Below are positions 15,369 to 21,635 of a DNA stretch of 64,000 nucleotides, piece by piece; the first letter of the stretch is position 1; each line of letters starts with the position of its first letter. Below the pieces are notes generated by a model that saw nothing but the letters and a program-made list of their open reading frames with translations, searched no databases and was not told the DNA's origin. Made by a program: the position numbers and the translations under genes. The DNA comes from Thermodesulfobacteriota bacterium (lineage in GTDB: Bacteria; Desulfobacterota; Desulfarculia; JACQYL01). The stretch covers positions 3,680,001 through 3,744,000 of the forward strand of contig CAXXLZ010000002.1 of NCBI GenBank assembly GCA_963675595.2, read 5' to 3'.

Positions 15369-15687
15369 GGGGCCTATTCATAGACGTTCCGGTTCATCCG
15401 ACGGCGGCATTTAGCGGGTGCGGATTTCCCCGGCCGCTGACATTCGTTTCCCCTGTGAACCTCTCCGCCGAAGGCGGTGAGGTCCGCCTAAAGGGTTGCC
15501 CAAGCCCCTCAGAAAACTCTGGAGTGCGGGTCATGCGCCTGCGGCGTATGATCGAGGCATGGAACTCCGAGGGGGCCTATTCATAGACGTTGCGGTTCAT
15601 CAGCCGGCGGCATCTAGCGGATACGGATTTCCCCGGCCGGACATTTGTTTCCCCTGTGAACCTCTCCGCCGAAGGCGGTGAGGCCCG
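15369..15687 (+). repeat. Two ~117-bp direct repeats (15369-15486, 15572-15687), each ending in a reverse family-R hairpin
   Basis: GGGGCCTATTCATAGACGTT...CCCCTGTGAACCTCTCCGCCGAAGGCGGTGAGG occurs twice, ~203 bp apart. Confidence 0.85.
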
Positions 15688-17196: not shown

Positions 17197-18693
17197 ATGG
17201 TTGATAAGGATGTGTCCGGTGTGATGCCGAGAGCTGAAAACTCTCCGGGTCTTTCAAGCCCCGGGAAAGACGAGACCGCCGGCAGGACGAAATGGATTGT
17301 ATTTTCACTGGTGGCCGTTGCGGTGTTCATGTCGACGCTCGACACCAGCATTGTCAACATTGCCCTGCCGGTGATCATGAAGGATCTAAAGGCGCCGCTG
17401 ACCACCATTCAGTGGATTCCCATGATCTATCTCTTGAGCGTGTCGTCTCTTCTGCTCCCTCTAGGGCGGCTCAGCGATATCCAGGGAAGACGCCGGGTTT
17501 ATTGCGCGGGATTTTTGCTTTTTTCATTGGCATCCCTTTGGTGCGGCGTGGCGCCCAGCGCCGTTTGGCTGATTGCCGCCCGATCGCTGCAGGGCGCTTC
17601 GGCCGCCATGCTCATGGCCTGCTCCCCCGCCATTCTCGTGGATACCTTCCCCCCCGCCGAGAGGGGCAAAGCACTGGGGGCGCTGGGAGCGGTCGTCGCC
17701 TCAGGCCTCATCGCCGGGCCGGTCATCGGCGGCCTGATTATTCAGTCGCTGCCGTGGCGGGTCATCTTTTTTGTCAACGTGCCCATCGGCATTGTGTCCA
17801 CCATACTCGCCCTTCGAATTCTTGAGGATGCGGAAGCAACCATTGACGGCAAACAGGGCTTTGACTGGAAGGGAACATTTTTTCTGGTGGTTGGACTCAG
17901 TTTGTTTATCTACGTCATTTCCAACGCTTATTCCTGGAATCCGACATCTCCGCGCACCATTGCGGGGTTATCCGTTTCAATCCTGGTCATGGTGTGGTTT
18001 CTTCGTGTTGAAAAGCGCACGGATTCTCCCATATTTCAAACGTCACTGCTGAGAATTCGTCTTTTTCTTTTTCCGCTCCTCGCCGCATTCATACTGTACG
18101 TCAGCCTGTTCACCATGATTTTTCTCATGCCCTTCTATCTGGTTTATCCCTGCGGTTTATCCATTGAAAAAGCCGGATACACCATGGTGATCCCTTTTGC
18201 CTTTCTTTCTCTAACAAGCCCTCTTTCCGGGTACGTCTCGGACCGGACGGGGTCCCGCACGCTTTGCACCCTCGGAATGCTGGTGATGTCGGCGGCGCTG
18301 TTCTACCTGTCCCGGATTACGCCCGAACACGGATACCTTTCCGTGGCCTGGCCCCTGGCTTTGGTGGGAATCGGAACCGGTATTTTCGTTTCACCCAACA
18401 GCTCAACCCTGATGAGCGCCGTGCCGCAAACCCACAGGGGGGAAGCATCCGGTATGTTCGCGGCCGCGCGAAATCTGGGAATGGCCATCGGCGTGGCTCT
18501 GTCGGGTCTCATCTTCAACAGCATCTTTCATTCGCAGAGCGGAGGCCTGGCGTTAAAGGAATACAGACCGGACCTCGAGACGGTTTTCCTGGCCGCTTTT
18601 CGGTGGGCTATGCTCGCGGGGGGATTCGTGGCCTGCATCGGTGTCGTCGTATCCTTCCTGCGCGGCGGTGAAGCGGCACGAAATAAGGGGTAA
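17197..18693 (+). CDS. MFS drug:H+ antiporter (DHA2, 14 TMS)
   Basis: LDTSIVNIALP, GRLSDIQGRRR and WRVIFFVNVPIG motifs. Confidence 0.92.
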   Translation: MVDKDVSGVMPRAENSPGLSSPGKDETAGRTKWIVFSLVAVAVFMSTLDTSIVNIALPVIMKDLKAPLTTIQWIPMIYLLSVSSLLLPLGRLSDIQGRRRVYCAGFLLFSLASLWCGVAPSAVWLIAARSLQGASAAMLMACSPAILVDTFPPAERGKALGALGAVVASGLIAGPVIGGLIIQSLPWRVIFFVNVPIGIVSTILALRILEDAEATIDGKQGFDWKGTFFLVVGLSLFIYVISNAYSWNPTSPRTIAGLSVSILVMVWFLRVEKRTDSPIFQTSLLRIRLFLFPLLAAFILYVSLFTMIFLMPFYLVYPCGLSIEKAGYTMVIPFAFLSLTSPLSGYVSDRTGSRTLCTLGMLVMSAALFYLSRITPEHGYLSVAWPLALVGIGTGIFVSPNSSTLMSAVPQTHRGEASGMFAAARNLGMAIGVALSGLIFNSIFHSQSGGLALKEYRPDLETVFLAAFRWAMLAGGFVACIGVVVSFLRGGEAARNKG

Positions 18694-18784
18694 GGTAAGT
18701 ATTCACGGGGGAGGGGATTTTTTTATTTATTTATCGGGGGAAACTTTCGAGAAAGTTTCCTATGTGGCCTCAAGTCAAGCCGGA

Positions 18785-18965
18785 ATTGGATAACCGTTTC
18801 CTATTCGCGCCCGAAGCGCCAAGTACACATGCGATGTAGAAGCGAAGATGCCGCCATTTCCCCAGCGCTACCGATGCAGCCAAACTTTATCGCGGCCGTC
18901 TCCGCTTTTTTCTCCCGGCTTGAGGCTCGGGACCCACCTCAAGTATGGGTCCCGAGCCGGTTGGG
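18785..18965 (-). ncRNA. Predicted bridge/seek RNA of the IS1111-type element
   Basis: 5' hairpin (18924-18958); internal loop with AAAGUUU and GGGGAAA matching both target strands; second loop with AUAGGAAA matching the circle junction. Transcript ends are inferred. Confidence 0.75.
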
Positions 18966-18990
18966 TTCTCCTAAACAAGTCCTAACCGGC

Positions 18991-20079
18991 TCATGCTTGG
19001 TCCGCTTGGAGACGAAATTCATAGGTCCGTTTTTCCATGGTCAATCGCCATAGAACAACGGCCAGTTTCCGTGCCAACGCACAAATGGCCTTTTGTGGAA
19101 GGCCCGTTCGCGACAGGAGTTTTCGATAATGCGAATCAATGGCCGGATCCCTGGACTTCCACGTCCAGGCCGCCTCCACCAACAGACTCCGCAGTCGCGT
19201 CTGACCCACGGGAGGAAGCGCCACTCGAGATTTCCGCTCTCCGCTTTGTCTTACCAACGGTGCGAGTCCCAGATAGCTGGTCACTTCCTCCACCCGATGG
19301 AACCGACTCGGGCGAAACAATTCCAGGAGGAAGGTAGCCGCTGTGATGGGACCCACCCCGGGGACGCTTCGAAGGCATCGCATTTCCTCAAAGTGTTCAG
19401 GTTTCTCGCACACACTGGAAGTCCTTTCCTCCATGAAGGCTTTTTCCTTTGTGAGGAAATTCAACTCACGGAGCAAGCTGAGCAGCGTCGCTTTGGCCTC
19501 CTTCGGCAGACGAAGCTTTCGAAGTTGCGCCACAGCGCTTCGGCCCCAATGATTGAGCCCGGGAGGCGCCTCCACACCGTGAAACAGCAGAAGGGATTGA
19601 ATTCTCTGCTTAACGCGTCGAGTGCCGTCGGCCAGATCGTGCCGACGGCGAATTACGCTGCGTTCGGCCTCCTCTTCCTCCGTGGGAACGGCGATGGACT
19701 TCAATATCCCTCGGGCGGCATGGTCCGCCAACCGCATGCAATCCAGGCGGTCGGTCTTGGCCCCCGCAGTCACCGGCCTAGGGACCCGACTCGGCGCCAC
19801 CACGATCACGCTGAACCCGGCTTTGGCCAAAGTGCGCGCAAGGCCGAAGCCGGTGGGCCCCGCTTCGTAGGCTACGGCTCGGATGCGCCTCAAGTGGGGG
19901 AGCAACATGGCCACGATGGCCTCCGGAGAGGCCGAGGACACAAAAGTCTTCACCTCGCCGTCGCTGCGAAGCACGGCCACGTGGTAGCTCTTTTTGTGTA
20001 CGTCGATCCCGACGTGGAAATCACGGTCGATATCCAGCTCCAAAAACTTGGCCAATTCTGTTACTTTCGTTGCTACCAT
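18991..20079 (-). CDS. IS110 family DEDD recombinase/transposase
   Basis: GIDVHK, YEAG, KTDRLD (DEDD); SVPGVG and RQSG catalytic Ser; RBS AGGAG upstream of ATG 20079. Confidence 0.95.
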   Translation of the reverse strand: MVATKVTELAKFLELDIDRDFHVGIDVHKKSYHVAVLRSDGEVKTFVSSASPEAIVAMLLPHLRRIRAVAYEAGPTGFGLARTLAKAGFSVIVVAPSRVPRPVTAGAKTDRLDCMRLADHAARGILKSIAVPTEEEEAERSVIRRRHDLADGTRRVKQRIQSLLLFHGVEAPPGLNHWGRSAVAQLRKLRLPKEAKATLLSLLRELNFLTKEKAFMEERTSSVCEKPEHFEEMRCLRSVPGVGPITAATFLLELFRPSRFHRVEEVTSYLGLAPLVRQSGERKSRVALPPVGQTRLRSLLVEAAWTWKSRDPAIDSHYRKLLSRTGLPQKAICALARKLAVVLWRLTMEKRTYEFRLQADQA

Positions 20080-20144
20080 GTTGGTCTCCTTTCTGTTTGG
20101 GTGATGCTCCATCATAACGATCGAGCACCTGAGGCCAACATGGT

Positions 20145-20286
20145 ATTTCCCCCGGTCCCCTTTCAAAGCGTTTTAAGAGTGCCTCACCGCCTTCGGCGGA
20201 GAGGCTTCGCTGATTTCCCCCGGTCCCCTTTCAAAGCGTTTTAAGAGTGCCTCACCGCCTTCGGCGGAGAGGCTTCGCTGATTTCC
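20145..20286 (+). repeat. Perfect 68-bp tandem duplication bounded by ATTTCC
   Basis: 20145-20212 equals 20213-20280, followed by ATTTCC at 20281. Confidence 0.92.
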
Positions 20287-20403
20287 AGCGTCCTTTGATT
20301 TGCTGAATCGGCAAAAACGAGCGGCATGTGCCGTCCAACCTATTAAAACACCTGAAGGTTTTCAAAAAGGGCTCCCTCGGATACCTTTCTGAATGGTCAC
20401 AGG
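20275..20403 (+). repeat. Intergenic repeat module C (AAACGAGCRGCATGTGCCGTCCAAC...CTCGGATACC..TCTGAATG)
   Basis: Copies at 24494-24648, 16860-16948 and reverse at 26462-26578. Confidence 0.75.
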
Positions 20404-20417
20404 GTAAGCGGTGCCGC

Positions 20418-21635
20418 TTACGGCGTTTTCAAGCCTTCCTCGATGTTTCGGCAGGCCTGGACGAACAGGTCGTTTTCTTCTTCCGAGCAAATGGTCATAC
20501 GGAGAAAATGGTGACCCTGCAATCCATTGACCCGATTGAGGTTGGCCGTGAGAAACCCCTGTTCCGTCAGCGCCTGCCAGAGTTCATCCGCTTTCAGGTG
20601 CGCGTTTTTCAGCATGAGCGTGTTCGTCCGGGAGGGTAGGAAAGAGAACGTCTTCAAGGTTTCCAACTGCCGGTACAAACGTTTCCGGCGGATCACCAGC
20701 TTTTTCCTGGCGCTCTGCACGTGCTCCTCATCAACGGAAGCGATTCCGGCCAGAAAAAGAGAGAACCACGAAAAGGGAAACATGGGCCGGTACAGGGAAA
20801 CGGCCTGCAAAATAGTTTCGCTTGAGCTGATGAGGTACCCGACGCGCAGGTTCGGCAGGGCATGGATTTTGGAAAAAGTCCGCAAGACCATCAAATTCTT
20901 GTATTGTCCCGCAAACCGACTTGCCGACACTATTTCCCGGTCCGTATCCGTGTATTCGCCGTAGGCCTCATCGATCACAACGGCGGTATTCTGCGAAGCG
21001 CATAGGGCCGTCAGGTCTTTCATCCACTCAAGGGAAAGATCCTGGCCCGTTGGATTCACCGGGTTGCTGACCCACAGCAGCTTCGGGCGATGGGCTTGGA
21101 TGAGGTTTCCAAGGCGTTCCACGGTGGCGTCCGTCCACTGAAAGTCGTCCTCAGGCGCAAGGGGTAGATAAACGGGAGTTCCGCCCACGCGAATGGAAAA
21201 ATCGGCGAACACGCTGAAATTGGGAATGGGAACCAAAAAGGCCTCACCGTTTTGCAGAAATACCCGGCTGATGTGATCGATCATGGACTCCAGGCCCGCG
21301 CTCAAGACAAACCGGTCGGGATCCAGTCCGTGCAAATCCGCCAGGCGCCGGCGCAGCAGGCGGTAATGGTTGTCCGGATACTCCACCAGATTCTGCCTGC
21401 ACAGCCCGGCCAGGTCGGCCTCTTCCAAGACCCCGTCGACGAGGTCCGAATAGCCGTCGGAATTCTTCCCGATATCGAACCGGTAGACCTTCTCCAGGTT
21501 ATGGTCCCGTTTGAGCCGGTCGATGAGCTCCTGTTCATCCGTATCCTTGCTGATGTAGTCCTCGGTTTCCGCGCTCAGGGCCACGCGGGTGAGGCAGCTG
21601 ATGATGTCGCGGGTCGTCAAGGGAATCCTCTTCAA
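20418..21635 (-). CDS. PLP-dependent class I/II aminotransferase (HisC/CobD-like)
   Basis: YPD, SNPVNPTG, IDEAY and LRTFSKIHALPNLRVGY motifs. Confidence 0.88.
   Translation of the reverse strand: MKRIPLTTRDIISCLTRVALSAETEDYISKDTDEQELIDRLKRDHNLEKVYRFDIGKNSDGYSDLVDGVLEEADLAGLCRQNLVEYPDNHYRLLRRRLADLHGLDPDRFVLSAGLESMIDHISRVFLQNGEAFLVPIPNFSVFADFSIRVGGTPVYLPLAPEDDFQWTDATVERLGNLIQAHRPKLLWVSNPVNPTGQDLSLEWMKDLTALCASQNTAVVIDEAYGEYTDTDREIVSASRFAGQYKNLMVLRTFSKIHALPNLRVGYLISSSETILQAVSLYRPMFPFSWFSLFLAGIASVDEEHVQSARKKLVIRRKRLYRQLETLKTFSFLPSRTNTLMLKNAHLKADELWQALTEQGFLTANLNRVNGLQGHHFLRMTICSEEENDLFVQACRNIEEGLKTP

Follow-up and report, generated by a model that had tools for sequence, protein, structure and literature searches.

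An IS1111-group insertion sequence whose recombinase is probably guided by an RNA encoded in its 3′ end

We describe an insertion sequence (IS) in a 64-kb stretch of DNA from a Thermodesulfobacteriota bacterium (contig CAXXLZ010000002.1, positions 3,680,001 to 3,744,000), which was analyzed as a whole and is called the window here; coordinates are those of the window unless a contig is named. The element lies at 18756–20145 on the minus strand, is 1390 bp long and reads TACCATG...ATAGGAAA. Our principal conclusion, to which we give a probability of about 0.88, is that it belongs to the IS1111 group and that its DEDD recombinase is guided by a 3′-encoded RNA that matches both the target and the element's own ends. 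The anatomy of the element, its copy number and insertion sites, the covariation of the RNA stems among relatives and the covariation of the guides with target and donor were all observed directly.

The non-coding end downstream of the recombinase gene has a stable predicted fold: over 240 nt the free energy is −102.5 kcal/mol (z = −5.08), a value that none of 200 shuffles reached. An earlier reading of the sequence (the first-pass annotation) had described three folded features here, all of which were recovered in place on the minus strand. Hairpin (i), at 18924–18958 directly after the stop codon, has 13 perfect pairs, or 14 with a terminal U.G in the minimum free energy (MFE) fold. The other two make up the predicted bridge/seek RNA core (18794–18899, minus strand), which consists of a target-binding loop and a donor-binding loop. 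The target loop (ii) is closed by an outer stem of GCCGC (18896–18892) with GCGGC (18854–18850) and contains GAUAAAGUUU(G) at 18891–18881, the inner hairpin GCUGC-AUCG-GUAGC at 18880–18867 and (G)CUGGGGAAA(UG) at 18866–18855. The donor loop (iii) is formed by GUACUU (18826–18821), the hairpin GCGC-UUCGG-GCGC (18819–18807) and GAAUAGGAAA (18806–18797).

Both loops match DNA at the boundaries of the element. On the 5′ side of the target loop, the right-target guide GAUAAAGUUU (18882–18891, minus strand) complements the top strand of the core and right flank, AAACTTTCTC, at 9 of 10 positions for the window copy and at 6–9 of 10 over eight genomic copies; the same complementarity was found by a separate repeat scan as an 11-nt, 91% inverted repeat. 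The left-target guide CUGGGGAAA on the 3′ side (18857–18865, minus strand) corresponds in sequence to the top strand of the left flank and core, CGGGGGAAA, with agreement at 8 of 9 positions for the window copy, 9 of 9 for the copy L002 and 7–9 of 9 over the eight copies. The left-donor guide GAAUAGGAAA, which together with the donor hairpin spans 18797–18819 (minus strand), equals the element's right end, ATAGGAAA, and the donor-loop sequence AUAGGAAA is identical to that end at 8 of 8 positions. All the loop matches claimed in the first-pass annotation (9/10 and 8/9 for the target, 8/8 for the donor and 5/6 for GUACUU) were reproduced. The guides are arranged with GAUAAAGUUU (18891–18882, the top-strand complement) 5′ of CUGGGGAAA (18865–18857), an order also found in 63 aligned relatives.

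The decisive evidence comes from covariation within the family. A covariance model, R1, was seeded with seven sequences (seed A3) and gave 63 matches in 95 sources; one relative, L030, was left out of the seed for its poor alignment in alignment A1, and its guides fit its single flank poorly (3/6, run of 4). Comparison of rows (for example L046, L049, L057, L058 and L075) placed the start of the R1 matches 20–60 nt past the protein match on the same strand. Across the 63 relatives 96.2% of 1134 stem cells are paired, as against 85.1% in shuffles, the percentage paired being inflated because alignments A4 and A5 were fitted to the structure of the model. Compensatory change is seen in 15 of the 19 pairs, 134 cells have changes on both sides where 30.4 were expected, no shuffle out of 500 reached any of five covariation measures, and sliding the partner by 1–3 columns gave 19–60% pairing. 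The inner hairpin of the target loop (helix 2; 18867–18880, minus strand) is paired in 95.4% of cells with compensatory change in 4 of 5 pairs, and the donor-loop hairpin (helix 4) in 99.6% with such change in 3 of 4. A second model, R2, was built only from 50 metagenomic matches and contains no sequence of this genome. It gave a single match in the 64-kb window, at 18794–18899 on the minus strand (62.5 bits, E 3.6e-12), where only the third helix is imperfect. Folding and a covariance model had been proposed in the first-pass annotation as a check, and this independent recovery, together with the covarying stems, upholds the prediction. A scan of 18000–21000 against Rfam gave no family at or near its gathering score and no bridge or seek RNA family among its matches, of which there were three at chance level (E 3.5–6.4), one tracing hairpin (i).

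The guides change together with the sequences that they would recognize. Scored over the six loop bases 5′ of the core, the left-target guide gives 4.78/6 against the element's own left flank and 2.01/6 against the flanks of other elements (45 elements, 0 of 10,000 permutations), and the longest exact run of the right-target guide complement averages 7.22 at the element's own right junction and 3.97 at non-self junctions (55 elements, 0 of 2000 permutations); the relatives are not independent, so both permutation counts overstate significance. Dropped before these counts were the 18 of 63 relatives that had no recognizable left end and the 8 of 63 that had no right junction of sufficient length. 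The left-donor guide agrees with the element's own right end at 8/8 positions in 49 of 58 elements, at 7/8 in eight and at 6/8 in one, with seven different 8-mers represented. In seven main-clade relatives (L048, L050, L063, L069, L089, L117 and L118) AGA or ATA takes the place of AAA as the donor-loop core, and all seven show the same change in the core of the target loop. That the guides follow each element's own target and donor is plain by eye in the alignment of these sequences, in keeping with the earlier claim of a reprogrammable recombinase. The genome itself holds what, by its sequence, is a case of natural reprogramming: the diverged copy L009 keeps the donor loop, differs in its left guide (CCUGCAAA) and has a right guide, GCUAAAGUUU, that matches its own flank AAACTTTAG over 9 nt.

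The recombinase gene (tnp; 18991–20079, minus strand) starts with an ATG at 20079 that is preceded by GGAG, stops at 18991 and encodes a protein of 362 aa, the sole long open reading frame (ORF) with homologues in the element. Two Pfam matches exceed the curated cut-offs, PF01548 (DEDD transposase; 1.3e-15, residues 23–165) and PF02371 (IS116/IS110/IS902 C-terminal; 4.1e-22, residues 234–319), and the only solved structures matched were the bridge recombinases ISCro4 (9t56, 4.8e-11) and IS621 (8wt6, 3.9e-10), which agrees with the first identification of the protein as an IS1111-type bridge recombinase. The best annotated plasmid match is an "IS110 family transposase" (46.8%). The protein contains the motifs VGIDVHK, YEAGPTG, KTDRLDC and GLAPLVRQSG, the last of which fits the GL-P----S(t)G motif given for IS1111 transposases by Siddiquee et al. 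(PMC11187229). When the window protein was aligned with five relatives of 43–55% identity, D26, E72, D110, D113 and S279-G280 were invariant in the six sequences, and the putative catalytic acidic residues were assigned by position; L015 was left out of this alignment for a frame problem and the lack of a recognizable right end. Relatives were sampled from species genomes (15 loci, 36–55% identity), from related genomes (matches at E ≤ 1e-40 in 4 of 60, the best with 56% identity) and from metagenomes (relatives are encoded in 522 of 599 candidate stretches, of which the best 80 were used; maximum 58%). Contigs of sequencing runs excepted, no relative closer than 58% protein identity was found outside the genome among these sampled genomes and metagenome stretches.

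The ends of the whole IS (18756–20145, minus strand) were fixed by comparing the eight genomic copies, whose flanks differ. The span given in the first-pass annotation, 18756–20150, had the locus right and the length wrong, as it counts twice the GGAAA common to both ends: the GGAAA at 20146–20150 is the target's copy of bases common to the IS right end and the left flank. Empty repeat copies elsewhere, found in contig sets, join 18755 to 20146 with five ambiguous letters and agree with this boundary. Insertion was without target duplication, only the GGAAA/AAA common with the IS right end recurring at the eight copies. The left end is about 66 nt long (20145–20080), and the right non-coding end, downstream of tnp, comprises 235 nt (18990–18756). 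Subterminal inverted repeats, in which 18765–18775 pairs with 20127–20137 (minus strand) over 11 nt at 91%, lie 8–9 nt in from the termini; those of the IS1111 group are given as about 7–17 bp (PMC11208160). The right terminus (18756–18778, minus strand) contains a −35-like TTGACT (18778–18773), the right subterminal repeat (18775–18765) and the left-donor half-site with the core, CACATAGGAAA (18766–18756).

A search of the genome (6.79 Mb, three contigs) found eight full copies, six of them with 100% identity to the query along its full 1395 bases, one with 100% identity from base 3 onward and one with 99%. The ORF is intact and stop-free and the protein identical in 8/8. Eight near-identical copies with intact ORFs argue for recent activity, and on this sequence evidence the window element is a complete and probably active IS of the IS1111 group, IS110 family; the earlier claim to this effect, with an IS1111-type layout, is supported. 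Two further copies are partial. L009 (G000:C1:339446-339997), about 3 kb from the full copy L006, is a diverged 3′ part, 81–82% identical, that is cut off within tnp, and L010 (G000:C2:3813470-3813542) is a 73-bp solo left end that stops just past the ATG and has the left flank ..CACGAAA. A circle junction had 0 matches in the assembly, which is expected of an assembly and hence uninformative. Four contig sets compared with the locus contained no piece spanning it; IS-skipping joints in these sets were considered as excision and rejected, since their sides are just 20–30 nt long and derive from other repeat copies. An IS variant that differs by 10 substitutions and one inserted base is present in contigs whose runs are labelled as a second organism. 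Its differences fall at window 18907, 18910, 18913 and 19246–19441, none within the guide arms or the four helices.

All eight copies sit at (G)GGGAAA^N, where ^ marks the junction. Other copies had been predicted to occupy GGGGAAA^CTTT sites, and this holds for the end of the left flank in 7/8 (GGGGAAA) and for the start of the right flank in 5/8 (CTTTC); it fails for one copy with GGGAAAA on the left and, on the right, for two copies with CCTTT and one with AACTC. From the single GGGAAAA copy it follows that the exchanged core lies within AAA. Each of the five CTTTC sites is an arm of the palindrome GGGGGAAACTTTC(TC/GA)GAAAGTTTCCCCC, the second module of a repetitive extragenic palindromic (REP)-like repeat whose first module is CTCCGCCGAAGGCGGTGAGG; relative to the insertion, this first module is on the left in two copies and on the right in three. 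One of the remaining copies lies in a variant palindrome and two lie in unrelated non-palindromic DNA (n = 8), so the proposal that the guide is aimed at the REP-like palindrome stands for five copies of eight and not for the other three. GGGGAAACTTT sites number 19 genome-wide: three are the surviving opposite arm at occupied palindromes, three arise by chance in a CRISPR array and the others are empty. Elsewhere in the window there are five further full repeat copies (at 241, 21740, 26711, 39110 and 44361), which have variant palindromes; inspection of all five confirmed that none has the exact GGGGAAACTTT and none carries an IS, as had been stated in the first-pass annotation.

A number of results weigh against RNA guidance, beside the inflated pairing and the kinship of the relatives already mentioned. 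The window element alone gives p ~0.003 in a lenient test, in which 58 of 20,000 mononucleotide shuffles of the 235-nt end contained left and right matches, each of at least 7-mer length, in the same order and within 60 nt; this is modest by itself, and the decisive evidence is that from the family covariation. No sigma-70-like promoter for the RNA was found within the 3′ end, so that its transcription is assumed to be from the tnp transcript. Two of the eight copies lie outside any palindrome, no genomic site matches both target guides perfectly, the used sites depart from the ideal 16-mer at 2–5 positions, and U at guide position 8 is opposite C at 5/5 CTTTC sites.

The weakest part of the model, and one that is ambiguous in these sequences, is the assignment of GUACUU (18821–18826, minus strand) as the right-donor guide. 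This candidate pairs with AAATAC of the left end at only 5/6 positions, with one C.A mismatch whose position relatives conserve. Most relatives have a hairpin GUACC-loop-GGUAC (helix 3, 93.9% paired) in which GGUAC is the 3′ strand; this makes the right-donor assignment ambiguous. L078, L085 and L094 change GGUAC bases together with the hairpin partner, and in L078 and L085, the two of these with an available left end, that end stays TACC, an observation in favor of a structural hairpin, rather than a guide, at these positions. The bases nonetheless follow the donor between clades: the main clade has TACC ends and GGUA in the RNA, and a distant clade has TAAT ends and AUUA in the RNA, with the mismatch next to the core conserved in both. 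Such a core-adjacent mismatch resembles the right-donor pairing of IS621, which is described as discontiguous (PMC11208160). The window element and L009 are without the GUACC/GGUAC hairpin.

The modest chance result for the window alone (58/20000), the five of eight insertions in a perfect palindrome and the 2–5 guide mismatches tolerated at used sites would also suit a protein that itself picks the palindrome, as a hairpin, as a cruciform or by direct readout, with the loop matches a coincidence or a captured repeat relic. We regard this as highly unlikely, given that the two copies in non-palindromic DNA yet retain GGGGAAA, that the loops follow their own flanks across 45 and 55 relatives with quite different targets, that the stems around the loops covary and that RNA dependence is reported as experimentally demonstrated for IS1111 members (PMC11187229). 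Covariation and G.U (G.T) pairs do fit RNA and same-strand single-stranded DNA alike, and the 3′ end might pair with the target as single-stranded DNA in the manner of the IS200/IS605 guide sequences. The transposase is, however, a DEDD/RuvC-like enzyme of the IS110 family and not an HUH enzyme, relatives are described as co-purifying with RNA from the non-coding end (PMC11187229), and the guides, like those in the solved IS621 complexes (PDB 8wt6 family), are directed at the two strands of a target duplex, all of which makes guidance by single-stranded DNA exceedingly unlikely.

Loss of mobility is another explanation to be weighed, the copies then stemming from past bursts or from segmental duplication of repeat-plus-IS units. 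L001 and L004 have about 55 bp of flank in common on each side as well as an 84%-identical 169 bp, and nine empty genomic sites with only two mismatches to the ideal 16-mer are still unused. Against this, seven copies match the query at 100% along its entire length (one of them aligned from base 3), 8/8 ORFs are intact, the flanks of the other copies are unrelated, the similarity of L001 and L004 is at the level of the repeat family and ends within about 200 bp, and the runs labelled as another organism contain a variant with small differences (10 substitutions, 1 insertion). We consider an immobile element very unlikely.

The left terminus TACCATGUUGGCCUC (20131–20145, minus strand) comprises the right-donor half-site (TACC), a −10-like TACCAT and the 5′ arm of a stem with the ribosome-binding site (RBS) and start region of tnp (20088–20074). 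The segments 20131–20145 and 20074–20088 form a 15-nt, 93% inverted repeat, and in the fold of 20150–20066 (−33 kcal/mol, z −5.23) 20144–20131 pairs with the GGAGACCAACAUGGU region, the RBS being paired. When the leader was started past the −10, and hence lacked the masking arm, the RBS was free in the fold. An RBS-masking stem was predicted in 3/3 relatives folded, and according to these predictions it would block translation of read-through transcripts. A circle would set TTGACT (18778–18773) 17 nt from TACCAT (20145–20140), giving a predicted sigma-70-like promoter, and TTGAC is conserved in the right ends of relatives. Junction promoters are described as documented for ISEc11 (PMC11187229) and ISPpu10 (PMC12288879), and also for IS621. 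A literature search for RBS sequestration in IS110 elements found none; a 5′ UTR (untranslated region) of ISPpu9 that inhibits translation is described in PMC12288879. An internal promoter-like site, TTGGCC-16-TATGAT, lies at 20138–20111.

These elements can be combined into the most likely mechanism, in which the RNA would be made, bind the protein and direct recombination by analogy with published relatives. The DEDD recombinase would be guided by an RNA of about 105 nt from the long 3′ non-coding end (18899–18794), whose target-binding internal loop would read the insertion site. In the donor region, the 3′ arm would pair with the element's own right end (ATAGGAAA) and the 5′ side, discontinuously, with the left end (AAATACC). 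An excised circle, joined through the common AAA, would be inserted without duplication at GGGGAAA^C sites, the best of which in this genome would be the arms of the REP-like palindrome between convergent genes. Circularization would assemble the sigma-70-like promoter TTGACT-17-TACCAT and remove the 5′ arm of the RBS-masking stem, and in this way may tie recombinase synthesis to the circular form.

A bolder joint reading, which we consider doubtful, is that the left ~15 nt are triple-coded as right-donor half-site, circle-junction −10 and arm masking the RBS and start, so that circle formation would gate the synthesis of the recombinase as well as the recognition of the donor. On the same reading the GUACC/GGUAC hairpin of the relatives would mask the right-donor guide, its loss might make the window element unusually active, and the 68-bp tandem duplication in the left flank (junction GGGGAAA^TCAG) might be a footprint of the recombinase rather than of replication slippage.

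This duplication belongs to the left flank of the window copy (20146–20286, minus strand), which contains the CTCCGCCGAAGGCGGTGAGG palindrome, the left arm of the target palindrome and the perfect 68-bp repeat ending in GGGGAAA (Tandem Repeats Finder: period 68, 2.1 copies, 100% matches). The 68-bp unit begins and ends at GGAAA(T), its internal junction reads GGGGAAA^TCAGCG and the array abuts the IS left end (20145–20286); it could have arisen by slippage on 5–6-bp microhomology or by a recombinase-related rearrangement at a GGAAA pseudo-site. The right flank (18727–18755, minus strand) is the remainder of the REP-like palindrome (CTTTCTCGAAAGTTTCCCCCG...), with an intact cognate site on the other strand at C2:3698737 (window 18737). 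The copy as a whole lies between the 3′ ends of the convergent ORFs 17197–18693 (+) and 20418–21635 (−).

The first module of the REP-like repeat was counted by regular expression at 98 copies genome-wide. The second palindrome varies, both arms changing together, and the window copies at 15463 and 15664 have the first module only. In the CRISPR array, which lies outside the window at G000:C2 ~4378300-4381600, the repeat ends ...CCCCGCGTGTGCGGGGGAAAC and together with the next spacer yields chance cognate sites (three exact 11-mers, two with two mismatches to the ideal 16-mer), none of which is occupied.

Within the 3′ end, hairpin (i) is also found in the diverged copy L009 and lies outside the family model, and it is lineage-specific. 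Its interpretation as an intrinsic terminator was rejected, as it is without a U tract and no terminator was predicted. In the MFE fold the entire bridge RNA lies inside a long-range stem of 18913–18923 with 18775–18785 (UCAAGCCGGGA with UUCCGGCUUGA), the 3′ strand of which shares bases with the −35-like hexamer and with the right subterminal repeat; L009 and L011 have different sequences at the stem positions that are still able to pair, as judged by eye.

Many relatives have the same termini, TACCATGTTGG... and ...CCACATA(G/A)GAAA. In L063 and L069 the left junction is still AAAA despite the AGA/ATA core. The relatives L029 (G007:C2), L044 (G007:C1) and L027/L040 (G015:C55) carry the left guide UAAAAAAA and sit in runs of seven A within coding-looking sequence (ATACTAAAAAAA^GCAATAGCC). 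These A7 sites are reminiscent of the slippery site at which IS3-family transposase genes shift frame, and the element may thus be an IS with other ISs as its targets. A pattern search for left ends in five relatives' genomes gave seven places, the new ones being a second copy at a similar A7 site (L044) and an unrelated element (L043).

The guide order, the 3′ location, the REP targeting and the predicted junction promoter of the window element match, at the level of sequence, the published IS1111 seekRNA/bridge-RNA biology. In IS1111 elements the seekRNA is described as encoded downstream of tnp, and within it the complement of the top strand lies 5′ of the match to the bottom strand (PMC11187229); for 93.0% of IS1111 elements the bridge RNA is reported as predicted in the right end (PMC11208160). 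The first-pass annotation had proposed this arrangement, and the predicted RNA is indeed in the right end with the IS1111 guide order; every defining IS1111 feature that can be tested by sequence was found. Among the closest known systems is ISPa11 (IS1111, Pseudomonas aeruginosa), which targets host REPs and has a seekRNA downstream of tnp, the same guide order and subterminal repeats (PMC11187229). The two differ in host lineage, target sequence and core, and the RNA of the window element is a predicted one. ISEc11 (IS1111, E. coli) likewise has a specific short target, a circle with a junction promoter, a 3′ non-coding end that is essential and a seekRNA that can be programmed (PMC11187229), where TTGACT-17-TACCAT is predicted for the window element; its target is a linear 12 bp as opposed to the palindromic repeat here, and its function is demonstrated whereas that of the window element is predicted.

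Other systems share some of these properties. ISPpu9 and ISPpu10 (IS110, Pseudomonas putida KT2440) are multi-copy and lie in REP/BIME (bacterial interspersed mosaic element) sequences, and the hybrid junction promoter of ISPpu10 and the structured 5′ UTR of ISPpu9, which inhibits tnp translation, parallel the predicted promoter and RBS-masking stem (PMC12288879). They are described as having the bridge RNA upstream of the tnp mRNA in the same transcript, antisense and Ssr9 small RNAs, and an AG core (PMC12288879), whereas the window element has its RNA in the 3′ end and a core within AAA. IS621 and ISCro4 (IS110 group; 8wt6, 9t56) also have a DEDD recombinase with a PF02371 C-terminal domain. 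Their two-loop bridge RNA, each loop of which reads both strands with overlap on a common core (PMC11208160), resembles the RNA predicted here, in which the right-donor guide is ambiguous. The protein similarity is distant (E ~1e-10), their RNA is in the left end and not the right, the left/right guide order within the loops is reversed in the window element, and the latter has long subterminal repeats and a core within AAA rather than CT. The differences between it and the IS621 type are precisely those known for IS1111 elements.

RNA-guided IS110/IS1111 biology has been known since 2024 (PMC11187229, PMC11208160, PMC12288879), and knowledge of the mechanism is unchanged by the present element. 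What it adds is a natural example with exact ends and with eight insertion sites whose graded mismatches show which guide positions tolerate a mismatch, an in-genome variant with a re-programmed guide, and a 63-member alignment that exposes the target, donor and core positions. Annotation of the genome can draw on it, and it offers a candidate orthologue for the engineering of bridge recombinases. To the host its presence in repeat sites between convergent genes is harmless, and there are cognate sites still unoccupied.

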